Shown here: positions 8,354 to 26,029 of the stretch, one piece after another
Position numbering within the stretch: the stretch's first letter is position 1
Layout of the letters: every line of letters starts with the position of its first letter
Origin: Candidatus Saccharimonadota bacterium
GTDB lineage: Bacteria; Patescibacteriota; Saccharimonadia; Saccharimonadales; UBA4665
Length of the DNA stretch: 64,000 nucleotides
NCBI GenBank assembly: GCA_025928155.1
Contig: JAICKC010000003.1
Coordinates: 9,069-73,068 of the forward strand
Direction of reading: 5' to 3'
The notes under the pieces: model-generated
Database searches by the model: none
Told to the model about the DNA's origin: nothing
What the model saw: the letters and a program-made list of their open reading frames with translations, nothing else
Made by a program: the position numbers and the translations under genes

Positions 8354-9085
8354 CTAGAAACTTCGTAACAAGAGCGTACCTACCACTAGCAGTAAGAGTG
8401 GCGGGACTACGAAAATGAAAAACAGAACAGTCAGTATAATGCGTATTACACTGCGAGCGCGAACCGGCTTTTCTGCCACCAGCTCCGGATGTTGCTGCAA
8501 GTACAAACGGTACATCACAGCCACAATCACGCTTAACGTTACATCCACGATAGCCGACGCCGCCAGCAACCGGCCATAAAAACCACTCAGCAGGACTTGT
8601 CCATCGTGCGCATAGACCACGCCCACAATCATCAAAGCAACGACAGCTATAAAGAAGTAGTTGGCGTAGACATATCGCTTTGCTTTCCAGTAAAGTACGT
8701 CCACATCAATTAGCGTTTTAACATGGACTAGCACAAACAGTGCCACAACGTACGTGGTATACAGCTTGAGCGCCAGATCGCCACCAACCACCTGCCAGAT
8801 AGCAAAGACCGAGGTAAAGAAACTTAAAACGGCGATAGCAATCGATGCATTGATGACAAAATCGGAAGCCCGGGGAGATGGGTCGTTTTTGTGTGAGGCC
8901 ACTACAGACACCAGTCCGAACAAAATGCCAATGTGTAACAGCGCAACAAAAATTGTAGCCAGCGCCTTCCCGGTTGTGTCGCTAAACTTACCGACCAGGA
9001 TTGTGACAACCGCAACTGCCGCGGCAGCTACCAGGCAGTACAACATTGATTTTATGAGTGAACTTCTTAGTTTTAACTTGTCCAT
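8354..9085 (-). CDS. Polytopic membrane protein of unknown function, inserted between ruvA and ruvB
   Basis: At least 7 hydrophobic helices. No recognisable motif. Confidence 0.55.
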
Positions 9086-9134
9086 GCCCAGCTAATCTCC
9101 ATCTAATTATCCACCATTATACGCCACGCATGCG

Positions 9135-9710
9135 TTATTGCTTTAATGCGAGTTTGATACGTTCTTCAGCGGGTAACGAGAGGTCGATATCCTTAAGCGC
9201 CACCACGGCATCTTGCGGGGAGTAGCCAAGAGACACCAGTGCTTCGACGGCTTCATCGCCGGCGTTTATGCCGGGGCGGCCCACGATTCCCTGTGCCGTC
9301 TCGGTGACAACCAGGCCCACTTTATCGCGGAGCTCCACTACAATCTGTTCGGCAGCGCGCTTGCCGACGCCTTTAGCACTCTGCAGCACCTTGACGTCGC
9401 CAGCTGCGATGGCGCCACGCACGGCCGGTGCTGTGCCGATATCTAGCACAGCCAGCGCCACCCTGGGTCCTACATTCTTTACCCCCAGCAATTGCTCAAA
9501 TAATCGTTTAGTATCTAGGCTCATAAAGCCATACAGGTCGTAGCCTTGCTCACGGATATGCTCGTACACGTACACTTTTGTCGCCGTGGTGGTATTCCGT
9601 CGCCCGAAATCCTCGGCCGTCACCTGCAGGCCAGATCCTACACCATGCACATCTAGCACTACCATGTCAGCCAGCTTTTCGCTCACCACCCCAGAAAGCG
9701 TCGCAATCAT
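9135..9710 (-). CDS. ruvA: Holliday junction DNA helicase subunit RuvA
   Basis: MIATLSGVV...VLDVHGVG N-terminus. HhH segments (GVKNVGPRVALAVL, SAKGVGKRAAEQIV). Confidence 0.9.
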   Translation of the reverse strand: MIATLSGVVSEKLADMVVLDVHGVGSGLQVTAEDFGRRNTTTATKVYVYEHIREQGYDLYGFMSLDTKRLFEQLLGVKNVGPRVALAVLDIGTAPAVRGAIAAGDVKVLQSAKGVGKRAAEQIVVELRDKVGLVVTETAQGIVGRPGINAGDEAVEALVSLGYSPQDAVVALKDIDLSLPAEERIKLALKQ

Positions 9711-9718
9711 TGGGGATA

Positions 9719-10189
9719 TTATCTCACAGTTTGTGCATGAGTTAATGCAGCGGCAATAGCGTCAGCCGCATCGTCTGGTTTAGGAATTTCCGGCAGGCCG
9801 AGCAACACTCGCACCATTTCCTGCATCTGCTTTTTATCGGCCTTGCCATAGCCGGTGATGGCCTGCTTGATTTGCATGGGCGTATACTCGTAGATTTCCA
9901 TATCCGCCTGTTTGCCGCACAGCAGCACCACGCCCCGGGCCTGCGCTACTGTCATGGCCGTCGTGACATTGCGGGCAAAAAATAACTTCTCCACGCTCAT
10001 GACTTCCGGATGCGTATTGGTGATAATGTCAGTCAGCTCCTCGTAAATGGTTTGTAGCCGCACCGCGTCGTCTTCGTGGACTGGCGTGCGGATCACCCCG
10101 CCGTCTACCAGTGTAGCCTTGCCCTTGGTAGCTTCAATAATGCCGAAGCCGAGTATCCCCGTTCCCGGATCAATGCCGAGTATTCTCAT
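9719..10189 (-). CDS. ruvC: Crossover junction endodeoxyribonuclease RuvC
   Basis: MRILGIDPG start. Length 156 aa. Conserved C-terminal DAADAIA. Confidence 0.9.
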   Translation of the reverse strand: MRILGIDPGTGILGFGIIEATKGKATLVDGGVIRTPVHEDDAVRLQTIYEELTDIITNTHPEVMSVEKLFFARNVTTAMTVAQARGVVLLCGKQADMEIYEYTPMQIKQAITGYGKADKKQMQEMVRVLLGLPEIPKPDDAADAIAAALTHAQTVR

Positions 10190-10676
10190 GCTCTGCTACA
10201 GCTTTCTTCACCAATGGGCGCCAATCGTGCGTGCCTGTATACTTCAGTTCATCGAGGCTTACCAGCGGATACCATTCTGGCATCTCTGCGTACACTTTTT
10301 CATAGCTATCAAAACCTTCCATAGAAAACTCCCCACCCACAAAGTCGCATAAGTAATACAGGAGAAGGGTTTGATAGTACTGAGCCGTGCCGTCACCATT
10401 ATTCCAAGCGAAAAACTGGGGCGCGACTGCCAGGAATTGGGGGTTGGCAACGTCAATTCCCGTCTCCTCTTTCGTCTCCCGCACGACCGCCTCTTCCGGC
10501 GCCTCTCCCAGCTCAATACCACCCCCGGGTAAATTGTTGCGCCCAAAATGCTTCGCCGTTAGCAGTTGACCGTCCTTCATGACGATGGCGTAAGCCGAGG
10601 GGCGCCATCGTAGCTTGTCAGGCGATACGCTGTACGCATTGCCATCAACATCGTAACAGGTGACTGTTCTGGTCAT
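10170..10676 (-). CDS. NUDIX hydrolase
   Basis: Nudix box GGGIELGEAPEEAVVRETKEETGI. Its 3' end overlaps the ruvC start by 20 nt. Confidence 0.8.
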   Translation of the reverse strand: MTRTVTCYDVDGNAYSVSPDKLRWRPSAYAIVMKDGQLLTAKHFGRNNLPGGGIELGEAPEEAVVRETKEETGIDVANPQFLAVAPQFFAWNNGDGTAQYYQTLLLYYLCDFVGGEFSMEGFDSYEKVYAEMPEWYPLVSLDELKYTGTHDWRPLVKKAVAEHENTRH

Positions 10677-10716: not shown

Positions 10717-11766
10717 ATGATCGCTGGACGCTACCATTTCAGCAGCCGTATGGAGTATTTTCAGGAGCTCACCGATTTTGCTCGACACGCTGGCAAAGGT
10801 GACCGAATGTCCGTAGCGACTATGGTGTTTACGGCCGAGGAGCCGGCCATTGGTGAGATGATATACGAGATGACGAATGCGGCGCGGCGCGGCGCACGCG
10901 TTATTCTATCGGTTGATGCGTTTAGTTTCTTGTTAGGCCAGCACTTGAAGCCGGGTCCACTATGGTTTGGCACCGAGCTTTCAGCACGTTCGCCGGAGCC
11001 GTTCGGCGAACGGTTCGCAGCACTCAAAACATTAGCCGAAGCGGGCGGTGCGTACGTCATTACTAACCGACCGAAGCGGCGATTCACCATTCCGCAGGCC
11101 GGACGCTCGCACATCAAATTCGCCGTGCTAAACGACCGCATCTACATCGGCGGCCACAACCTTGAAAGGCCGAGTGACATAGACGTAATGGCTCACTGGG
11201 ACGACCATGGGGCCGCGGATTACCTTCTTGGTTTTACCCAAGCAGTAGTGAAGACGGGCAGTCCGCGTATGGTGCTCCATGGGCACGACGTGCAGCGGCG
11301 TCTCAATGACGACACAACGCTGCTTATCGACGCTGGCACGCCGCGCCAATCGCTCATTCTGGACGAGGCATGGCAGCTCATCGACGAAGCCGAGGAGCGG
11401 CTGTTCATGACCTGTCAGTACTTTCCCGGCGGACGCACCGGCCAGCACCTCGCACGCGCCCTGCAGCGCGGCGTGCAGGTAACGCTGTATTATAGCCACC
11501 CTAGTGCTCAGGACAGCGAAGCGGCCGGACACCATCTGTATGCTCTGCGGGAGCGCCTCCGCTTGCCCGCCGAGCTCTTTACGCATCGGTTGCCGAAAAA
11601 CTACCCAAAGCTCCACGCTAAGGTGCTCGTGAGCGAAAAGGCTGCCATGCTCGGCAGTCATAACTACGTAGTGCAGGGTGTACGCCTCGGAACCTCCGAG
11701 ATCGCCTTGCTATCCAAAGATCCTGTATTCGGGCAGCAACTAGTTGAGTGTTTTTCGAACTTATAA
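10717..11766 (+). CDS. Phospholipase D-like (two HKD-type motifs) family protein
   Basis: HIKFAVLNDRIYIGGHN and HAKVLVSEKAAMLGSHN. Both HKD motifs are slightly non-canonical. Confidence 0.7.
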   Translation: MIAGRYHFSSRMEYFQELTDFARHAGKGDRMSVATMVFTAEEPAIGEMIYEMTNAARRGARVILSVDAFSFLLGQHLKPGPLWFGTELSARSPEPFGERFAALKTLAEAGGAYVITNRPKRRFTIPQAGRSHIKFAVLNDRIYIGGHNLERPSDIDVMAHWDDHGAADYLLGFTQAVVKTGSPRMVLHGHDVQRRLNDDTTLLIDAGTPRQSLILDEAWQLIDEAEERLFMTCQYFPGGRTGQHLARALQRGVQVTLYYSHPSAQDSEAAGHHLYALRERLRLPAELFTHRLPKNYPKLHAKVLVSEKAAMLGSHNYVVQGVRLGTSEIALLSKDPVFGQQLVECFSNL

Positions 11767-11812
11767 ACAAACTGCGCACCGAGGAGCTGGAACTATCAGA
11801 CTATTTTGTAGG

Positions 11813-11837
11813 AATAAGAGAGAAAGAGAAGATTGAG
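11813..11837. repeat. Left arm of the inverted repeat bracketing the lsr2 patch
   Basis: aataagaga[gaaagaga]agattgag. Without the bracketed 8 nt it is the exact reverse complement of 12509-12525. Confidence 0.7.
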
Positions 11838-12007
11838 CGGGTAGTAGGGACAGGAGTAGCGGCGATGAGTGCCGGAAGCATGACTACAAAAACCACAGGG
11901 GGGTTAGCAAGCAGCGCCGCCGGAGCGGATGGTAAAGAGCGTGTTACAGCTCACGAGGCGTCCGGAGACGGCTCGTCCATCCGCCCCTGCGGGCTGCCCG
12001 TACCGAG

Positions 12008-12331
12008 CTACTTGCCGGTGGCGGCCTGGTATCTGGCGATGACCTCGGCGGGAACGCGTCCGCGTTCCTTGATGTCGATGCCATTCTCATGGGCCCAGGC
12101 ACGGACCGCCACGGTGTCGACGGAGCTCGGCTTGCGGGTGGGGCGGCGCGGCGCACTGCCAACCTTGCGGGCGTGCTGGATGTAGTTCTTCAGGGCGTCG
12201 CGCAGCTCGTCGGCGTGGCGGGTGCTGAGGTCGATCTCGTACGGGGTGCCGTCGAGGCCAAACCGCACGGTCTCGTCCGCGGGACCCTCGTCGAGGTCGT
12301 CGACGAACAGGACCTGTACTTTCTGACTCAT
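12008..12331 (-). CDS. lsr2: Lsr2 family nucleoid-associated protein (actinobacterial H-NS analogue)
   Basis: MSQKVQVLFVDDLDEGPADETVRFGLDGTPYEIDLS...ERGRVPAEVIARYQAATGK is collinear with mycobacterial Lsr2, including the RGR DNA-binding motif. Sampled lines in this CDS are about 65-72% GC. Confidence 0.85.
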   Translation of the reverse strand: MSQKVQVLFVDDLDEGPADETVRFGLDGTPYEIDLSTRHADELRDALKNYIQHARKVGSAPRRPTRKPSSVDTVAVRAWAHENGIDIKERGRVPAEVIARYQAATGK

Positions 12332-12508
12332 TGCTAATGGGTACCTCTCTGTGGGGGTTGACCTGGCAGCGCCGAGGTCCTTTTTTCCCTGATCTCAACC
12401 ATCGTTGGTTAGGACTGGGTTCGTAAGTTCGAGAAGACAACCCTAACAGGTTCTACTCAAACGTACCAAGCCAGTCCCGACACTAAACGGAGGGGAGATA
12501 ATTAGATA

Positions 12509-12525
12509 CTCAATCTTCTCTTATT
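12509..12525. repeat. Right arm of the inverted repeat bracketing the lsr2 patch
   Basis: ctcaatcttctcttatt is the reverse complement of aataagagaagattgag. Confidence 0.7.
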
Positions 12526-12597
12526 AAGGTGCAGGTTAGCGGTATAAGCCAACCAGCAAACTGATATTATACAATATATTATGCTATTAAGTCAAAA

Positions 12598-13320
12598 TTA
12601 TAGTAGCGACTCATCGATGTCGAAATTGACGTGAGCGTTGGTGACGTCATCAACCTCATCCAGAGCGTCCATGAGGCGCATGATTTTGCCGGCAGTATCT
12701 TTATCGGTAATTTCGATTACGGTGTTAGGTACGTAGCTGAGTTCGGCCTCAATAACTTCTACGCCAGCGTCGCGCAGCGCGTCGCGCACCTTAGCAAGAT
12801 CGCCCGCGGCTGTGTAGACCACACTCTCGTCACCCTCTTCTTGCACATCGTCGGCGCCGGCATCAAGCGCCTGGAGCATCAGCTCGTCACCTATCCCCTT
12901 CACGCGTATCACACCTTTGCGGTCAAATTGGAACGCCACCGCGCCCTTTTCGGCAATATTGCCACCATGTTTACTGAACGCCAATTTAACCATCGGGTAA
13001 GTACGGTTGATATTGTCGGTCGCAGCCTCTACCAAAATTGCCACGCCACCCGGACCGTAACCTTCGTACAGCACTTCTTGCAGTTGCGCCGCATCCTTGT
13101 CCTTTGCGCGGTCAATGCTGCGCTGGATATTGGCCATCGGCATGTTGGAAGCCTTGGCCTTATCAACGGCCAAACGCAACGCGAAGTTCGTCTCCGGGTC
13201 GGTGCCAGCGCGCGCCGCTATAGCAATATTGTTGCCGAGTTTCGTAAACAGCGCGCCGCGCGCCGCGTCTTTGGCGCCCTTTTCGCGCTTAATAGTCGAC
13301 CATTTGGAGTGTCCCGACAT
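12598..13320 (-). CDS. yebC: YebC/PmpR family DNA-binding transcriptional regulator
   Basis: MSGHSKWSTIKREKGAKDAARG. Full-length family signature. Confidence 0.95.
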   Translation of the reverse strand: MSGHSKWSTIKREKGAKDAARGALFTKLGNNIAIAARAGTDPETNFALRLAVDKAKASNMPMANIQRSIDRAKDKDAAQLQEVLYEGYGPGGVAILVEAATDNINRTYPMVKLAFSKHGGNIAEKGAVAFQFDRKGVIRVKGIGDELMLQALDAGADDVQEEGDESVVYTAAGDLAKVRDALRDAGVEVIEAELSYVPNTVIEITDKDTAGKIMRLMDALDEVDDVTNAHVNFDIDESLL

Positions 13321-20630: not shown

Positions 20631-21623
20631 GTGCGACGCGTACTTCACGGAAGCCAGCTGGCGCTGGGATCGGTGATCGCAGTCCTTGCTGCACTCACCA
20701 TCATCCCTACGCCCGCTCTCGCGGCACCGCAGCACAGCATCAACGGCCAACCTTGTCTGGTCGACAGTCCACCAGCGGGCTCGGCCATGCCCACCCCCTT
20801 CCTCAAGCTGCCGTTCCGGCAACGCGACGGAATAGGGTCAACGTATGACAGCCAGGGGTGGATTACCTCCCCTGACGAGCTCGCCATCGACGACGAGGTC
20901 AACGGCGACCTGCATGGCGCCAACGACCTGGAGTTCGTTAACAAGCCGGACTACGGTTACGGGCTCCCCATTCTCGCCGCCGCCAGCGGTCGGGCGTACT
21001 ACAGCTATCAGTACATCAGCGGGACTTGGACTGACCCGGTAACGGGTATCACCCACCAAGTCGGCATGGGTGCAGGCCTCGTTGTGGAAATTCGGCACGC
21101 CAAGGATCAGGCGGGTAACCCAGGCTGGGTTACCCAGTACATTCACCTGTCCAAGGTGGCACCGGGAATCCCGTATCTGCAGGCAACGGCTGTAGATGAC
21201 CCGAACGACCCCATTCACCCTGACTGGTTCCCCACGGGGCTCATCCAGGACGACGACACGCTCTGGAATCTCGGCGTACCGGTCACCCAGGGCCAAGTCA
21301 TCGGTTACATGGGCGATACCGGTATTGGGTATGACTGGAAGGATAACTTCAACCCAGTGACCGGCCAGGTCGCACCGCGCAATCGTGCCGTACTCAAGCC
21401 GTGGGATCCCCCACAGCTGCACTTCCAGCTATACCGGGGCCGGGTTAATGGTGTCAAGCAAGACATCGTTGACCCCTTCGGGCTCTATGCCCAAGTGTGT
21501 CCAGGTGAGTGGAAGCCACTGCGGCCGACCACCAACCCCTACACACCACTACCGGGTATGGTCCGCGCAGCACCGGTTACCGCGTGGATTACCCACGCTG
21601 GCCGACCGGTCTACGCCGGCTAG
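20631..21623 (+). CDS. Secreted M23 (LytM-type) metallopeptidase
   Basis: GTG start behind the SD gaagggag. Signal peptide ...IIPTPALA|AP. M23 motifs YIHLSKV, GYMGDTG and HFQLY. Sampled lines are about 62-65% GC. Confidence 0.8.
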   Translation: MRRVLHGSQLALGSVIAVLAALTIIPTPALAAPQHSINGQPCLVDSPPAGSAMPTPFLKLPFRQRDGIGSTYDSQGWITSPDELAIDDEVNGDLHGANDLEFVNKPDYGYGLPILAAASGRAYYSYQYISGTWTDPVTGITHQVGMGAGLVVEIRHAKDQAGNPGWVTQYIHLSKVAPGIPYLQATAVDDPNDPIHPDWFPTGLIQDDDTLWNLGVPVTQGQVIGYMGDTGIGYDWKDNFNPVTGQVAPRNRAVLKPWDPPQLHFQLYRGRVNGVKQDIVDPFGLYAQVCPGEWKPLRPTTNPYTPLPGMVRAAPVTAWITHAGRPVYAG

Positions 21624-21670: not shown

Positions 21671-21710
21671 ACTCATCTTAAGGTTCTCAAGTACGTATTA
21701 GTCCTAGGAA

Positions 21711-22283
21711 CTACAGAGAGACTTTTACGCCTGCTTTTATCAGTTCACCTTTGAGCTGCTTGGCAGACAAGAATCGAATGCTCGCAATGCCTATCTTTTC
21801 GGCTGCCGCAACATGTCCTGGATTGTCATCAATAAAAATCGCTTCAGATGCAGACACTCCCAACTTTGACAGCGTATGCTCAAATATTTCTGCACTCGGT
21901 TTTACCATACCCACCTCGCTTGAGATCACTATCTCGTGGAAGTGTCGCTCCAGATCATGCGCCACAAGTAGTTTGCGGATAAACGCTGAGGGGGCATTAG
22001 ACAACAGGGCAATGCGATATCCAGACTTAAGGCTATCGGCAACGGTTACGACTTCCTCATCAACCCGAGCAGTCGCATCGAGTTCTTCACTTGTCACCTT
22101 TCGCCCCTGGAGTTCGCTCAGCCGCTCCAAGAATTGTTCGACCGTTATATTACCCAAATCCATCTGGCGATTTGCCTCAAAGTAGGCTCCTTCATGCGGG
22201 ATGCCGTTGGTCCGCAGCCAAGCTTTGTACGAGTCAGTACGGAAAACGTCAAAGAAGTCAAAGATTATTGCCTTAATCATCAC
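21711..22283 (-). CDS. HAD superfamily hydrolase-like protein
   Basis: Motif I is degenerate (IIFDFFDVF). Motif IV is FIDDNPGHV. Length is typical of the IA subfamily. Confidence 0.65.
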   Translation of the reverse strand: MMIKAIIFDFFDVFRTDSYKAWLRTNGIPHEGAYFEANRQMDLGNITVEQFLERLSELQGRKVTSEELDATARVDEEVVTVADSLKSGYRIALLSNAPSAFIRKLLVAHDLERHFHEIVISSEVGMVKPSAEIFEHTLSKLGVSASEAIFIDDNPGHVAAAEKIGIASIRFLSAKQLKGELIKAGVKVSL

Positions 22284-22651
22284 CTAAACTATAGCAAAGA
22301 AAAACTCCCCATCCTGAGGGGTTTAAATATAAGCTTCTTGGAGTGGTGCCGCTGAAGTCAGTTGCGTGAGCATCTGCTACATCTCCTTTGCGGGTAGCGC
22401 GTTACCGCTCCTCAGGACATAGCTCCATGTGCCCTCTCTGACTATTTACAGGTGTCGAGGGGGTGACTGCGAGCTAAGCGGTATTGCGTTCTAGTCGTAC
22501 GGGTAGCGCTGAGTAATTGATACCGTCATTACTCAGACTATATCAAATAGACATTCCCTAGCACGAGGAGTCGTTATATAAGCACGCATGGAGGGCCCAA
22601 TACTACTCTGCTGCAACCGCTCTACAAAGAAATGAATTCGAACTTAGTGAG

Positions 22652-22681
22652 TTAAGCCCCGGCGTATAATCCGGGGCTTAA
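22652..22681 (-). terminator. Hairpin terminator downstream of hsp20
   Basis: 11-bp stem ttaagccccgg / ccggggcttaa with an 8-nt loop, starting 8 nt after the hsp20 stop. Confidence 0.65.
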
Positions 22682-22688
22682 CTGTCGC

Positions 22689-23156
22689 TTAGCTTTTAGC
22701 GGCTAGCTCTTTACTGTTGCCGGATGAGATAGAAATTCGTTTCGCTTCCGGCCGCTCAACCGGAACTTTAATTTTCAAAATACCTTTATCAAGCTCAGCC
22801 TCAATGTTATCGGCATTAGCGCCTTCCGGCAAAACTACGCGACGGGCGAAGCTTGCACGGCTTTCCCGCATCAGGTAGTTGCGCTTCTTGTCGTCGTCCT
22901 TTTGCTTACTTGCTGTTTCACCTTTGATTTCGAGTACCCCGTTTCGGACATTGATTTCAATATCGTCTTCACTAAAGCCGGGCGCCTGCATTTCAACAAC
23001 CATGTGCTTGTCATCTTCACTATAGATATCCACCGATGGCATACTGAAGCCAGTTGGCAGGCCTGTACTTTTCCAAAAGTCATCCAGCAGACGATCAAAT
23101 TCTTCAAAAGTTGATAGTCCGAGAGAAGAGCTTGGACGACGAATGATATCCATCAT
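22689..23156 (-). CDS. Hsp20 / alpha-crystallin family small heat-shock protein
   Basis: ACD signature: VDIYSEDDKHMVVEMQAPGFSEDDIEINVRNGVLEIKGE...F.R.V.LP...A.L..GIL.I.VP. Confidence 0.9.
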   Translation of the reverse strand: MMDIIRRPSSSLGLSTFEEFDRLLDDFWKSTGLPTGFSMPSVDIYSEDDKHMVVEMQAPGFSEDDIEINVRNGVLEIKGETASKQKDDDKKRNYLMRESRASFARRVVLPEGANADNIEAELDKGILKIKVPVERPEAKRISISSGNSKELAAKS

Positions 23157-23322
23157 ATAAACTCCCTTCTTGCCTCACCGTAGCATTGCTTCAAGGGGTG
23201 ATACGCCTAGAGGAGTTGGCATTAATGTATCTCTCAACCCCAGAAGCTACCTTACGGAGTATAGACATGCATTTAAGTTAATCATCTTGGTAAGTTACCT
23301 TACCTTACTTCAGTTTAGAAAA

Positions 23323-23349
23323 CTAGCACTCTCATGTCAAGAGTGCTAG
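23323..23349 (-). promoter_or_regulatory. CIRCE operator (HrcA site) overlapping the hsp20 promoter
   Basis: CTAGCACTC-tcatgtcaa-GAGTGCTAG versus consensus TTAGCACTC-N9-GAGTGCTAA. On the coding strand the spacer contains TTGACA, followed 17 nt later by TAAACT (23312-17). Confidence 0.85.
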
Positions 23350-23443
23350 TTAGTGCAACCGACTGTCATCTGCAATAACAGATTGATAGATGTGGTGCTG
23401 ATTGGTGAACTTCCACTGAAGTCCGGGAATCTTCGGTGCTAGA

Positions 23444-23944
23444 TTAGTATGTAGAAGGAATGCCTGCCAAGAGCTTTTCGATCATCGGTACTGCAGCCTC
23501 CAGGTAGCTGGTCATCTTCATGTTTGGAGCGTCTATCCGCAATCTTTCTAAGGAATAACTTTCTGCTTTTTCAATTGCAGCCTCTTCAAGTTTATACGGA
23601 CCTTCACTCCTGCCGATGAAGACCGTAACGATCTCTTTGTCTGCCTCGGAGGTAAACTTACCAATCTCCCGAAGTGAAGTCTTTATGCCTAATTCCTCTT
23701 CAGTCTCACGAATTGCAGCTTCAAGATATGACTCGCCAGCTTGAACGTGTCCAGCGGCCGAGCCTGACCAATACAGGGGATAGGTTTTCTTGGTAGACTT
23801 ACGTTGCTGTAGGTAGAGTTCGCTTTTTGAGTTGACGAGAATGACAAATGAAACCCTGCTAAGCAGACTTTTTTGTCTGACTTCGTCTTTTGGTGCAGAG
23901 CCAATTACCGTATCGTTTGCGTCTACAATATCAACGATTTCCAT
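23444..23944 (-). CDS. NUDIX hydrolase
   Basis: Nudix box GHVQAGESYLEAAIRETEEELGI. Confidence 0.8.
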   Translation of the reverse strand: MEIVDIVDANDTVIGSAPKDEVRQKSLLSRVSFVILVNSKSELYLQQRKSTKKTYPLYWSGSAAGHVQAGESYLEAAIRETEEELGIKTSLREIGKFTSEADKEIVTVFIGRSEGPYKLEEAAIEKAESYSLERLRIDAPNMKMTSYLEAAVPMIEKLLAGIPSTY

Positions 23945-23984
23945 GTCGGAAGTATACCAAACGAGGAGACCCCTCTGCCGAGCA

Positions 23985-24014
23985 GTCTTTCATAGTGCTT
24001 ATGCTTGGAGGGCC
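23985..24014. repeat. Distal direct repeat (att-like): copy of the tRNA-Lys 3' end plus its downstream flank
   Basis: gtctttCatagtgcttatgcttggagggcc matches 25851-25880 at 29/30 positions. Confidence 0.75.
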
Positions 24015-24048
24015 GCCGTAGATGTTATCGCAACTCATATTGAGCTTG

Positions 24049-24627
24049 TTAGTGTAGTTTCTCGCCTCGATTTAACATATCGATAAATTTCTCGATTTTT
24101 GCCTTTCTGGTTTCCGGCTTTTTAGCGGTTTGTATACGCCAAGAAAACCCGTAAACGTTTGCTTTATTGAGTGTTTCAAAAAATTGTTTAGCTTTTGGAT
24201 TTTTATCCAGTGCAGCCTGAAAATCCTCTGGAACCTGACTATTACTCGGCGAATCATATGCTGCGTCCCATCTGCCAACTTGCTTTGCTGCATCGATTGC
24301 CACACGTCCAGCCGGTTGCATCTTGCCGGAATGAATAAGTGTTTCTACCTTGGCTACGTTGACTTTTGACCAAATGCTTTTTGGGCCCCTAGGGGTAAAC
24401 TTCTGCAGGTAGTAGTCTTTATCGTATGCTTGCTTTTGGCTATCGATCCAGCCGTAGCACAAAGCTTCTTCCAGTGCTTCGTTGTAGCTAACTGACGTTT
24501 TGTCGGATGACTTTTTTGCGTGCTTAAGCCATAAGCCCTGTGGCTGGGTATGGTTCTCTTCAAGCCAAACCCTCCAGTCTTCTTGACTTACGAATAAGCG
24601 AACGGGCAGGTCTTTAAACATTTCCAT
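24049..24627 (-). CDS. YdeI/OmpD-associated (bacteriocin-protection, DUF1801-like) family protein
   Basis: W..WL..NH......W.....K......SY.EA.EEALCYGWIDS...FTPR...S.WS..N pattern. Start set at MEMFKDL (24627). Confidence 0.7.
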   Translation of the reverse strand: MEMFKDLPVRLFVSQEDWRVWLEENHTQPQGLWLKHAKKSSDKTSVSYNEALEEALCYGWIDSQKQAYDKDYYLQKFTPRGPKSIWSKVNVAKVETLIHSGKMQPAGRVAIDAAKQVGRWDAAYDSPSNSQVPEDFQAALDKNPKAKQFFETLNKANVYGFSWRIQTAKKPETRKAKIEKFIDMLNRGEKLH

Positions 24628-24768
24628 AGTCAAAGGATAGCAATAAAAAACTCCTCGAAACAGAGGAGCTTTATAGTGCGTATTTGGAGGGCCATAGTGG
24701 AACTTATCAGGACGAAACTCATGAGGGATGGCGAAATAAGCATTGCAAAAATGTGACATAATATATTT

Positions 24769-25830
24769 ATGGAATCGTCAAATTATGATAAACCTTTGCC
24801 ATCGATTCGTGTTGCCGTAACAGAAACATGTAATCTTCGATGTGATTATTGCCCGACTGATGGTGATAGTGTCGAGATGCAGAACGGTAGTCTTGATACT
24901 GACGGTTTTGAAGACATGCTTACAGCAGCAATTGACGTTGGTTTTACTGATTTTAGTTTCACTGGCGGAGAGCCGTTGTTAAGCAGAAGGACGGCAGACC
25001 GTACTTTTCAATTGGCGCGTTTGGTCAATGATCTGCGTGCTGAAAAAGGCAGTGATGGCTATACCAAGTTGAATACCAACGGAGCCAATCTTCTCAGATA
25101 CCAAGATGGCGTAGTGAGTGCTGGATTTGATGAGCTAAAAGTTAGCCTTGATACATTAAATCCTGCGACATTCGAAGAGCTTGCCAAGCGTAACGAGAAA
25201 GTTTTCGATGCTACCCTACAAGGAATACTTGCTGTTAAAGATGAAGTGCCCGTTCGCTTACAGACGGTTGTCGGTAAATACAATATAGACGAGCTTCCTC
25301 AAATGTTGGATTTTTGTATCGCACATGGATTAGATATCAAGCTATTTGATATAAGCAGATATAATAATGCACTCGCTGGCTCAGGAAATTTTGCAGACAC
25401 GAACTATGTATCTTTGGATGCGGTTAGTCAAATGTTGGAAGAACAATACGGTGAACCAATAATAAAATTTGCTGTTGGTGGATACGGTCATGCAAAGAAA
25501 GTGTTTACTAGCCCAGAAGGAACTCGCATTGAAATCCGAGACACTTCTAAGAGCGCCCAATATTCTCCTGATTTATGTGAAAGCTGCCCGAATTACATGT
25601 GCCAAGACGGGCTATGTAATTTAGTTATCGCAGCCGATGGGCATATAAGATTTTGTCGAGAGGGTGGAGCCGAGCAAACAATCCCTACTCAAAACGAGCA
25701 TGGTATTAAGTCACTCGATGAACTCAGAAGCGATTTTATGAAAGCGGCTGGCATATTTGCCTTGGCACAGAGTATTGAGCGACCAATCAAGCCACTTCGT
25801 CGATTAATACCACTTACGGTCATCAAATAA
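24769..25830 (+). CDS. Radical SAM enzyme, MoaA-like architecture (N-terminal CX3CX2C plus C-terminal Cys cluster)
   Basis: IRVAVTETCNLRCDYCP, FTGGEPLL, and C-terminal CESCPNYMCQDGLCNLVIAADGHIRFC. Sampled lines are about 37-45% GC. Confidence 0.8.
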   Translation: MESSNYDKPLPSIRVAVTETCNLRCDYCPTDGDSVEMQNGSLDTDGFEDMLTAAIDVGFTDFSFTGGEPLLSRRTADRTFQLARLVNDLRAEKGSDGYTKLNTNGANLLRYQDGVVSAGFDELKVSLDTLNPATFEELAKRNEKVFDATLQGILAVKDEVPVRLQTVVGKYNIDELPQMLDFCIAHGLDIKLFDISRYNNALAGSGNFADTNYVSLDAVSQMLEEQYGEPIIKFAVGGYGHAKKVFTSPEGTRIEIRDTSKSAQYSPDLCESCPNYMCQDGLCNLVIAADGHIRFCREGGAEQTIPTQNEHGIKSLDELRSDFMKAAGIFALAQSIERPIKPLRRLIPLTVIK

Positions 25831-25832
25831 AA

Positions 25833-25858
25833 AGACGTCTCGGCTGAGAAGTCTTTTA
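25833..25858 (+). terminator. Terminator hairpin after the radical SAM gene
   Basis: agacgtctc-ggct-gagaagtct followed by ttttat. It runs into the proximal direct repeat. Confidence 0.55.
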
Positions 25859-25880
25859 TAGTGCTTATGCTTGGAGGGCC
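25851..25880. repeat. Proximal direct repeat (att-like) overlapping the last 9 nt of tRNA-Lys
   Basis: gtctttTatagtgcttatgcttggagggcc. 25872-25880 is the tRNA 3' end including the encoded CCA. Confidence 0.75.
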
Positions 25881-25948
25881 CAGTGGGACTCGAACCCACG
25901 ACACGCGGCTTAAAAGGCCGCTGCTCTAACCAACTGAGCTATGGGCCC
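25872..25948 (-). tRNA. tRNA-Lys (anticodon UUU), CCA encoded
   Basis: The reverse complement folds as a cloverleaf: GGGCCCA-TA-GCTC..GAGC-A-GCGGC-CTTTTAA-GCCGC-GTGTC-GTGGG-TTCGAGT-CCCAC-TGGGCCC-T-CCA. Confidence 0.9.
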
Positions 25949-26029
25949 GCGCTACGGTTGCGGGCAAAATAACTTCTTATATTATCGATATTTTCGGGGA
26001 AAAGTCAATCTGTAGACCCCTGTGCTACT

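Follow-up and report, generated by a model that had tools for sequence, protein, structure and literature searches.

An actinobacterial-type lsr2 gene, probably acquired by horizontal transfer, is intact in one Saccharimonadales strain and a pseudogene in another

Lsr2, a nucleoid-associated xenogeneic silencer, is usually taken to be characteristic of Actinobacteria and of the mobile elements that they carry, and Saccharimonadales are tiny epibionts living on other bacteria. The presence of an lsr2 gene in the 64-kb stretch of Saccharimonadales DNA analysed here (the window) raises the questions of whether it is a genuine member of its family, how it arrived and whether it is of use to its present carrier. 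The full explanation that we consider probable is a genuine horizontal acquisition, with the gene surviving as a dispensable and possibly transient passenger.

The lsr2 gene occupies positions 12008..12331 on the minus strand and encodes an intact protein of 107 residues. An earlier sequence-only reading had recognized Lsr2 here from several motifs and proposed a Pfam search, and both the motifs and the assignment are confirmed: the protein scores above the gathering thresholds of both Lsr2 models over their full length, namely PF11774 (Lsr2 dimerisation domain; E=4.3e-27, 94 bits with the cut-off at 29.6, profile positions 1-58 of 58) as well as PF23359 (Lsr2 DNA-binding domain; E=3.7e-13, 49 bits with the cut-off at 26.9, profile positions 3-37 of 37). 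Residues 1-58 form the dimerisation and oligomerisation region, residues 59-69 a basic linker, and the C-terminal DNA-binding region carries the RGR motif at residues 90-92. Solved structures of Lsr2 from Mycobacterium tuberculosis (Mtb) match both parts of the protein, PDB 4e1p the N-terminal domain (E=1.9e-14) and PDB 2kng the C-terminal one (E=6.3e-06). The C-terminal domain likewise matches 6qkp (E~6e-06), and in these alignments 'rgrvpaevi' lies opposite 'RGRIPADVI'. AF2 predicts strands at residues 13-15, 21-26 and 29-34 and a helix at 41-58, followed by a disordered linker and by helices at 73-82 and 95-105 on either side of R90-G91-R92. The mean pLDDT of the monomer model is 63, and Foldseek returned no PDB match at E<=0.001, as is to be expected when both domains are tiny and one of them exists only as a dimer. 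Additionally, the homolog alignment shows the family-invariant columns to be intact, including W79 and R90-G91-R92. The open reading frame is thus a bona fide, full-length member of the Lsr2 family, and the protein is probably still biochemically active. An antisense frame at 11748-12185 (+), with 145 codons for amino acids, was rejected as a gene, having no Pfam match and being missing from the protein collection.

The composition of lsr2 is foreign to its surroundings. Its GC content is 0.670 and its GC3 0.870, compared with a mean GC of 0.540 and a mean GC3 of 0.608 (sd 0.069) for the 68 other open reading frames of the window, among which the highest GC3 is 0.719. The most GC-rich 324 nt of the entire window (0.701, at 11981) lie in the lsr2 patch, and a sliding analysis in 200-nt windows peaks at 0.715; the very GC-rich patch described earlier is therefore real, with lsr2 as the GC maximum. 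Furthermore, the GC3 of lsr2 falls within the range of its homologs in contigs of 68-72% GC (GC3 0.79-0.88). The composition of lsr2 is therefore foreign to the recipient and donor-like.

Lsr2 proteins are known from Actinobacteria and from their plasmids, phages and islands (review, PMC7074111). Among the matches listed, the closest homologs share 69-75% amino acid identity with the window protein in alignment; the nearest named ones are a protein from a Streptosporangiaceae metagenome-assembled genome (71%) and a Trebonia protein (67%). Nucleotide similarity to the homologs is 75-77% and is confined to the coding sequence. Scans of genome contigs and of metagenome contigs with the Lsr2 protein gave at least four loci each, and the nearest homologs whose DNA was examined, among the matches listed, all lie in DNA of 68-72% GC (a Streptosporangiaceae genome and soil metagenomes). 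Some of them have a gene for a TraG/VirD4-type T4SS coupling protein or a transposase-like HTH gene as neighbour. Phage-encoded Lsr2 proteins reach at most 47% identity, every match coming from a phage of one of five actinobacterial genera; plasmid-encoded ones reach at most 53%, all ten named plasmid genera (10/10) being actinobacterial; a scan of IMG/VR found no relative of the window protein. In a neighbour-joining tree (107 aa; one Patescibacteria sequence, that of the window), the window protein sits on a long branch as sister to its 120 best hits, of which the few that have DNA or a source name are of actinobacterial type. It deviates at 10 of the 69 columns that are at least 90% conserved among 30 homologs, whereas every other member deviates at four or fewer, and its dN to the actinobacterial homologs is about twice the dN among those homologs, with similar dS.

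Composition and taxonomic distribution suggest that the transfer ran from Actinobacteria to the epibiont. The donor would be a soil actinomycete and more likely a mobile element of one, since the nearest homologs are found in mobile contexts, next to a transposase-like gene or a T4SS coupling protein. Because the best matches reach only 69-75% at the amino acid level and 75-77% at the nucleotide level, the real donor is unsampled, and the step to a direct host is ours. Of the host-to-epibiont transfer put forward in the sequence-only reading, the transfer from an Actinobacteria-type source thus stands, resting on composition, empty sites and homologs, whereas the host as the donor is an assumption.

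The DNA on either side of lsr2 is of a different kind. As reported previously, the patch lies between two convergent genes, a PLD-like gene to the left (10717..11766, +; Pfam PF13091) and yebC to the right (12598..13320, -; Pfam), and their coordinates confirm this arrangement. YebC shares 84-100% amino acid identity with Saccharimonadales YebC proteins, the relatives of both PLD and YebC bear the name Ca. Saccharimonadales, and the order RuvB-RuvA-RuvC-PLD-YebC-RR-HK is conserved among relatives; by these comparisons, the backbone around lsr2 is Saccharimonadales. In four relatives (L005, L008, L020 and L021), PLD abuts yebC with spacers of 13, 15 or 37 nt or with a 12-nt overlap, and in a fifth (L027) yebC is followed by a NUDIX gene, so that lsr2 is missing beside yebC in 5/5 relatives examined (about 99 kb of relatives' DNA searched). 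The comparison of empty sites proposed earlier hence yielded four PLD-yebC junctions without lsr2, but a hairpin at none of the empty sites. Nucleotide homology to the relatives ends at 11708 and restarts at 12608, and the extra, lineage-specific DNA between the stop codons of the PLD-like gene and yebC (11767..12597) measures 831 nt. The C-terminus of YebC is the same as in L005 (...NFDIDESLL). The last ~5 residues of the PLD-like protein are unlike those of relatives in alignment and the protein falls short of theirs by 7 aa; the left junction may therefore lie within the ancestral 3' end of the gene. Continuation of the PLD tail in another frame after a frameshift was discarded; in the +1 frame, by eye, only 4/12 residues match.

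Within the inserted DNA, the 3' flank of lsr2 (11838..12007, minus strand) has a GC content of 0.64 and is predicted by minimum-free-energy folding to form a long imperfect stem with arms at 11917-11932 and 11977-11992, after which a U-rich run follows on the minus strand. The leader (12332..12508, minus strand) has a GC content of 0.50 and contains a Shine-Dalgarno-like GAGAGG motif 12 nt before the ATG, a spacing that is long for such a motif. Directly past the yebC stop and oriented towards lsr2 lies a putative sigma-70-type promoter (12566..12595, minus strand; TTGACT-18 nt-TATAAT), which has 11/12 matches in a consensus scan, the one method behind this call; it falls in one of the three places of the window below 40% GC and would give a 5' UTR of ~230 nt, with a predicted TSS near 12559. 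Rfam, searched at a permissive threshold, assigned no family to the leader at the gathering score, and we take the sub-threshold SorX and CsrC matches as chance. The leader is not clearly homologous to the ~70-nt leader common to actinobacterial homologs, and blastn and MAFFT found no convincing homology between the insert flanks, including the 3' flank, and the flanks of actinobacterial lsr2 genes.

A second strain proved informative about both the reality and the fate of the insert. L026 (JGI 3300067034), an independently assembled contig, aligns to window positions 14527-11055 at 96.43% nucleotide identity, with 124 differences and only two 1-nt gaps, and is colinear through both junctions. 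Since it spans both junctions in this way, the lsr2 insert is not an assembly chimera, a concern raised in the sequence-only reading, and since the two strains share lsr2, its acquisition is older than their split. However, lsr2 is a pseudogene in L026: the codon of the invariant W79 is TGA, a frameshift follows at codon 96, and the allele codes for the 78-aa oligomerisation domain only. The death of this copy indicates that lsr2 is dispensable in the lineage. Insert identity between the strains is 94.4-95.5%, close to that of intergenic DNA (94.8%) and below that of yebC, RR and HK (97.4-97.9%). While the pS of lsr2 (0.106) is similar to that of its neighbours (0.08-0.11), its pN/pS is 0.32 (12 differences, 6 synonymous and 6 non-synonymous) compared with 0.02-0.17 for the neighbours. 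The -35 hexamer of the promoter-like site reads TTGGCT in L026 (12592 T>C). The 90% cluster of the window protein contains two members among ~15 billion proteins, and its representative is the truncated 78-aa form.

The GC-rich patch is bracketed by an inverted repeat with its left arm at 11813..11837 (aataagaga[gaaagaga]agattgag) and its right arm at 12509..12525 (ctcaatcttctcttatt). The sequences are as first described, but of the 17-nt repeat claimed for them only 14 nt (11824-11837 / 12509-12522) are contiguous and perfect, and 17 nt are reached when the 8-nt 'gaaagaga' of the left arm is counted as an indel. Both arms are found in L026, the left with 11813 A>G and the same 8-nt extra and the right with 12514 T>C, and they pair around the whole open reading frame in the minimum-free-energy fold of the minus-strand RNA. 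The window holds 2 perfect 14-mer inverted pairs spaced 50-2000 nt apart, against a mean of 0.475 in locally shuffled windows, so that a 14-nt repeat is not rare in itself; that the arms should fall in both short junction zones by chance is unlikely (~1e-3 to 1e-4, a rough estimate from pair counts). The 14-mer arm has no second copy in the 64-kb window and none in the 27 loci examined, and the 17-nt arm gave four single matches in IMG/VR, which is chance level. No direct repeat beside the arms marks a target-site duplication, the flanks reading ...ttttgtagg on the left and aaggtgcag... on the right.

The repeat admits two accounts of how the insert was delivered. The 713-nt stretch from arm to arm might be a non-autonomous, MITE-like mobile cassette with lsr2 as passenger, mobilised in trans; the arms stand exactly at the edges of the foreign patch, GC-rich DNA starts with the very base that follows the left arm, and such a placement is unlikely by chance. 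The repeat-bounded unit proposed earlier is supported to this extent, but not by any target-site duplication or further copy of the arms, be it in the window, in the 27 loci or, above chance, in IMG/VR. Furthermore, no transposase is encoded nearby, the arms diverge at the neutral rate between the window and L026, and they occur in no actinobacterial homolog locus examined, which makes a mobile cassette improbable. Alternatively, foreign DNA may have split a pre-existing palindrome between PLD and yebC (AATAAGAGAAGATTGAG/CTCAATCTTCTCTTATT) at its centre, for example when a break at a hairpin was repaired. Removing 11838-12508 gives back a near-perfect palindrome in AT-rich DNA of intergenic type, this model expects no target-site duplication, and the 8-nt extra of the left arm resembles later AAGAGA slippage. 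Nonetheless, the short spacers or overlap in the four PLD-yebC relatives contain no palindrome, its stem would be just 36% GC and loop-less, and the C-terminus of PLD has changed as well, leaving this route a rather doubtful one. The earlier suggestion that the gene entered a former bidirectional terminator was rejected, as a consensus scan found no terminator-like site between the two genes and the relatives lack a hairpin.

Other explanations concern the reality, ancestry and function of the gene. The sharp jump in GC and the derivation of the window from one MAG contig might suggest an actinobacterial fragment joined into a Saccharimonadales contig in silico, by assembly or binning error; however, a separate JGI contig from a different strain runs through both junctions, the synonymous divergence of lsr2 equals that of its neighbours, and the PLD-like gene and yebC are both intact, so that such an artefact is extremely unlikely. 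It is also very unlikely that this Saccharimonadales group inherited lsr2 from its ancestor and the relatives examined lost it, or that the gene came from a phage rather than a cellular or conjugative source. Lsr2-like genes are frequent in actinophages (PMC8612146), and only ~99 kb of DNA of relatives was searched; on the other side stand a GC3 of 0.87 against 0.61 for the genome, five relatives without lsr2 at the site, a best phage match of 47% against 69-75% for homologs in cellular or conjugative contexts, the lack of a relative in IMG/VR and the two-member 90% cluster. Harder to set aside is a real transfer of a gene that is functionless even in the window strain, the intact copy being one not yet hit and on its way to loss. 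This is possible, though hardly probable. The two disabling lesions in the sister strain, the near-intergenic identity of the insert, the raised pN/pS and the 10 deviations at columns conserved in its clade all favour it, whereas the open reading frame is intact with all family-invariant residues, the lineage-specific changes are mostly conservative (I>V, I>L, V>I, K>R, A>S), pN/pS is below 1 and a strong promoter-like site lies upstream. Moreover, 2/6 inter-strain replacements (R23Q and N49D) look derived in L026, a polarity that we infer, the other four being ambiguous.

In the acquisition that we favour, ~0.7-0.8 kb of DNA with a complete, high-GC, actinobacterial-type lsr2 would have entered the site where the PLD-like gene and yebC converge, in an ancestor shared by two or more strains of a single soil Saccharimonadales species, the epibiont presumably having taken up DNA from its host or a neighbour. 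Transcription of lsr2 would start from the AT-rich promoter-like site past yebC or result from yebC read-through. The protein is expected to dimerise and oligomerise via its N-terminal sheet-helix domain, and its C-terminal RGR loop would enter the minor groove of AT-rich DNA, leading to bridging and repression of transcription. The predicted targets are the AT-richest spots, namely its own promoter region (autoregulation) and an island at 22-26 kb. Selection on lsr2 appears to be weak, with faster evolution than in its neighbours and a pseudogene in the sister strain. We regard the gene as a passenger that is dispensable and may be transient rather than as an established part of epibiont chromatin, and the intact copy may be functionally neutral or already impaired by the 10 lineage-specific substitutions. 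Silencing of AT-rich acquired DNA, suggested in the sequence-only reading, is weakened by the dead L026 copy and the relaxed constraint between strains. Modest weight goes to the view that the intact Lsr2 is expressed and acts as a silencer or nucleoid organiser in the Patescibacteria cell, taming the tRNA-Lys-adjacent AT-rich island at 22-26 kb, which we consider fairly unlikely. Delivery of Lsr2 into the host, also suggested there, and the bolder idea that Lsr2, whole or truncated as in L026, interferes with the Lsr2 of the host find no support in the sequence.

Comparison with known systems places the gene within a familiar family and in an unfamiliar setting. The window protein has the same length and two-domain architecture as Mtb Lsr2 (Rv3597c) and Streptomyces Lsr2/LsrL, and it has identical residues at the aligned positions that we take to be Mtb D28 and R45 (dimerisation) and R84 and R97-G98-R99 (DNA binding). 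In contrast to these systems, its gene lies in a 54% GC chromosome of a non-actinobacterial organism (Saccharimonadales, Patescibacteria), has 10 substitutions where its own clade is conserved and is dispensable, with a pseudogene in the sister strain; nor does it lie in a lysS-lsr2-clpC1 neighbourhood like that of Mtb. Truncated silencer homologs of the H-NST type lack the DNA-binding domain and antagonise H-NS, and the 78-aa L026 allele likewise consists of the oligomerisation domain only, the intact window copy not being comparable. However, that allele has a second lesion, the frameshift, and no known full-length partner, and decay is the simpler reading. Closer parallels are the mobile Lsr2 proteins of actinobacterial plasmids, conjugative elements, islands and phages (e.g. 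CgpS of the CGP3 prophage), which are travelling silencers too. Those on plasmids are a known class whose function is unstudied (PMC7074111), and this class resembles the nearest relatives of the window protein beside a TraG/VirD4-type or transposase-like gene. Unlike these, the window gene stands alone between core genes, without genes of an element, and its recipient is outside the Actinobacteria. Gene flow between Saccharibacteria/Patescibacteria and monoderm bacteria has been described, for example for the MPF-FATA T4SS (bioRxiv 10.1101/2025.01.22.634366); the direction (Gram-positive to CPR) and the ecological logic, in which an epibiont encounters the DNA of its host, are the same, whereas the cargo here is a nucleoid silencer. 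Our literature search found no paper linking Lsr2 with Saccharibacteria, Patescibacteria or the candidate phyla radiation.

In summary, our analysis points to a real transfer of a standard Lsr2 from Actinobacteria to an epibiont. No new mechanism is demonstrated, and the evidence of decay speaks against a major adaptive role. Nevertheless, a verified lsr2 gene in a Saccharimonadales genome indicates that silencer genes are able to cross into an epibiont, and the whole course of such a transfer can be followed inside one species, from donor-like composition through accelerated amino acid change to the coexistence of intact and dead copies. The affinity of lsr2 also provides a testable hint to the actinomycetes associated with an uncultured soil epibiont. 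Should the silencer reading prove true, no earlier H-NS/Lsr2-type silencer would have been known to work outside the phyla that confine each family, and lsr2 would have been borrowed from the host lineage, serving as a pointer to an uncultured, Streptosporangiales-like actinomycete host.

The open reading frame at 12008-12331 on the minus strand is present as described in the sequence-only reading, with the quoted 107-aa protein, and its assignment to Lsr2 holds: the Pfam models PF11774 (E=4.3e-27) and PF23359 (E=3.7e-13) are each matched from end to end, above gathering scores. The solved domains of M. tuberculosis Lsr2 are matched at the N-terminus (4e1p, E=1.9e-14) and the C-terminus (2kng, E=6.3e-06), and in this structure-sequence match the RGR loops align with each other. 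In all sequence tests the protein behaves as a typical Lsr2. The gene has a GC of 0.670 and a GC3 of 0.870, against a mean GC3 of 0.608±0.069 and a maximum of 0.719 in the 68 other window ORFs. The GC profile bears out the very GC-rich patch noticed earlier: its peak 324-nt value in all 64 kb falls on lsr2, and in composition lsr2 lies at the window's extreme. Neither the window nor 99 kb of DNA from relatives contains a second lsr2. The second-highest GC3 (0.719; GC 0.619) belongs to ORF 20631-21623, which has only a weak M23 peptidase match and lies just before an AT-rich island.

As had been claimed, lsr2 sits between convergent neighbours, a PLD-like gene (10717-11766, +) and yebC (12598-13320, -). 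A YebC search recovered a 3471-nt JGI contig (L026; sample 3300067034) that is colinear with window positions 14527-11055 at 96.43% identity, with 124 differences and just two 1-nt gaps; it spans the histidine kinase, response regulator, yebC and the whole insert, including both repeat arms and the 8-nt extra in the left arm, and runs into the PLD-like gene. The contig was assembled separately and comes from another strain within the species-level group. Since it is colinear across both junctions, these are not an assembly artefact, which dispels the worry about a chimera. Between the strains, pS is 0.106 in lsr2 and 0.08-0.11 in its neighbours; lsr2 was therefore already present in their common ancestor.

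Comparison with more distant relatives indicates what the site looks like without the gene. The PLD-like relatives examined share 51-68% identity and the YebC relatives 84-100%, and they include proteins named Candidatus Saccharimonadales by NCBI. The order RuvB-RuvA-RuvC-PLD-YebC-response regulator is kept in four relatives' contigs (L005, L008, L020 and L021), with a histidine kinase next in all except L021. The empty site proposed earlier was found in all four, where PLD abuts yebC without an intervening gene (intergenic distances of 13, 15 and 37 nt, and in one case a 12-nt overlap); the hairpin expected there was seen in none. A fifth contig (L027; YebC 93%) also lacks lsr2 and carries, directly after yebC, a gene homologous to the NUDIX gene that lies between RuvC and PLD in the window; PLD is absent from it. 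Nucleotide homology between the window and its relatives ends at 11708 and starts again at 12608. The YebC C-terminus is the same as in L005; that of the PLD-like protein is 7 aa shorter with different last residues, its tail (11745-11766) reading ...LVECFSNL before the stop and the unrelated tail of the relatives ...LEKQITKTIRETLGE. The original 3' end of PLD was probably replaced by the insertion or a later event. Additionally, the RuvB-RuvA-RuvC-PLD-YebC neighbourhood (window 8354-10676 and the five relatives' contigs) is a hot spot of small-gene turnover: His_Phos_1 lies between RuvA and RuvC in L005 and L008, and ORFs without assigned identity occupy other positions in L020 and L021.

The inverted repeat reported around the gene (11813-11837 and 12509-12525) is real, with 14 nt perfect (11824-11837/12509-12522); the 17 nt originally described are reached only with an 8-nt indel in the left arm. 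By itself, a perfect inverted pair of 14-mers no more than 2 kb apart is not unusual: there are two in the window and, on average, 0.475 in locally shuffled sequence. That both arms fall by chance in two short junction zones is unlikely, by our estimate about 1e-3 to 1e-4. The minus-strand RNA fold pairs the arms and encloses the ORF; this pairing follows from their complementarity and is hence no evidence of function. One change per arm separates the strains (11813 A>G and 12514 T>C), in keeping with the neutral rate. It is possible, if rather unlikely, that the arms are halves of an older palindrome in which foreign DNA was captured; this would require no target-site duplication, although such a palindrome occurs in no relative. 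We consider it distinctly improbable that the arms mark the ends of a small cassette with a passenger gene, given that a target-site duplication and a nearby transposase are absent and no further copies of the 14-mer were found in the window. The larger share of the probability falls to origins other than these two.

The Lsr2 family is known from Actinobacteria and their plasmids, phages and islands (review, PMC7074111). The closest of 7046 homologs share 69-75% identity in alignment with the window protein, and the close ones for which DNA was available all lie in DNA of 68-72% GC with GC3 of 0.79-0.88. Of the listed matches with a named source, a Streptosporangiaceae MAG (71%) and a Trebonia sp. 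protein (67%) come nearest. Because nucleotide similarity to homolog loci is 75-77% and confined to the CDS, the actual donor is unsampled. Identity peaks at 47% for copies on phages (470 records, with hosts in five actinobacterial genera) and at 53% for copies on plasmids (287 records; ten genera named, all actinobacterial); IMG/VR yielded no relatives. Among about 15 billion proteins, the 90% cluster of the window protein has two members, the window and L026 copies, and a neighbour-joining tree puts the window protein on a long branch, sister to the 120 best matches as a whole. The genomic contexts of the homologs are accessory, not housekeeping: a TraG/VirD4-type T4SS coupling protein gene immediately precedes lsr2 in L017-L019, a transposase-like HTH gene follows it in L011, and a UvrD-like helicase is encoded nearby in L001. 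The L017-L019 clade (L017:2206-4266), among the closest (69% identity, 107 aa, ~69% GC DNA), has entries in 65 blocks of the contig collection, and in one homolog (P0040) the coupling protein and Lsr2 are called as one protein. This arrangement suggests that soil actinomycetes harbour an Lsr2 lineage borne on conjugative elements. Furthermore, a stretch of about 70 nt ahead of lsr2 is conserved between actinobacterial loci that are otherwise unrelated (L001:5930-6000, L011:1950-2024, L013:1865-1934, L017:3870-3942; consensus ...CTTTGGAACTTGCTAAGATCTTTTCTAATCCG...TGGAG..TTCCATGG) and could represent a leader or operator retained across this clade; the window does not clearly share it.

The GC3 of lsr2 gives no indication of drift toward the recipient's value, and on the amelioration time-scale the transfer is recent. 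Compared with three close homologs from Actinobacteria, lsr2 has a dS of 0.55-0.88, similar to the 0.52-0.98 between those homologs themselves, and a dN of 0.21, about double the 0.08-0.11 between them. At columns conserved in at least 90% of 30 homologs, the window protein departs at 10 of 69 (A2S, I10V, I13L, G15E, G20E, G59S, one deleted Arg, R81H, V98I and K100R) and any other member at no more than 4; the departures are mostly conservative and leave invariant columns untouched. At least six of these substitutions (six checked in translation) also occur in L026, so their fixation predates the divergence of the two strains.

In L026, lsr2 (L026:2196-2520, window 12331-12008) has a first lesion, TGG>TGA at the invariant W79, that removes the whole DNA-binding domain, and a second, a 1-nt deletion with a frameshift at codon 96; the gene caller predicts a 78-aa product with PF11774, the oligomerisation domain, only. 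Decay is the simple reading of this allele, an H-NST-like truncated antagonist a less likely alternative. Between strains, pN/pS is 0.02 in yebC, 0.03 in the response regulator, 0.12 in the kinase, 0.17 in PLD and 0.32 in lsr2 codons 1-78, the last from just 6 synonymous and 6 non-synonymous changes. Identity in the insert (94.4-95.5%) is on a par with intergenic DNA (94.8%) and below that in yebC and the two-component genes (97.4-97.9%). Because the sister-strain allele is broken and constraint is relaxed, lsr2 is dispensable. We hold it doubtful, though a serious minority possibility, that the window copy is a functionless relic; its ORF is intact, all family-invariant residues are kept and its expression signals are plausible.

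These signals comprise a promoter-like site on the minus strand directly after the yebC stop (12595-12566; TTGACT-18 nt-TATAAT, 11/12 consensus match), implying a leader of ~230 nt, and a GAGAGG motif read 12 nt before the ATG. A scan found no terminator-like site between yebC and lsr2, which also leaves room for transcription running on from yebC. The GC-rich 3' flank is predicted to form a long stem. By family behaviour (PMC7074111), the protein would oligomerise through its N-terminus, bind the minor groove of AT-rich DNA through the RGR loop, and bridge and repress the bound DNA. In this 54% GC genome, preferred targets would be the AT-richest segments, namely the 22-26 kb island by tRNA-Lys and the promoter region of lsr2 itself, the latter suggesting autoregulation. 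Only three window sites fall below 40% GC: upstream of lsr2, at 751, and within 24-25.5 kb in the island. The proposed delivery of Lsr2 into the host is unsupported. The island itself (21700-25950; 43-49% GC vs 54%) ends at tRNA-Lys (25872-25948, -), encodes a HAD hydrolase, HSP20, NUDIX, OmdA-domain and radical-SAM proteins (GC3 0.34-0.51), contains the one further perfect 14-nt inverted pair in the window (24595/25247), and has the look of a genomic island gained separately from a low-GC source.

In sequence the window protein is like the rest of the Lsr2 family; the recipient is what differs. Our literature search found no paper joining Lsr2 with Saccharibacteria, Patescibacteria or the candidate phyla radiation. 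Since the protein is an ordinary Lsr2 by sequence and gene flow from monoderm bacteria to Patescibacteria is documented for other genes (bioRxiv 10.1101/2025.01.22.634366), this is a known family in an unexpected phylum and not a new kind of system. Its main value lies in a clean, doubly assembled transfer from host lineage to epibiont, caught between gain and loss, and lsr2 may serve as a pointer to the epibiont's host.
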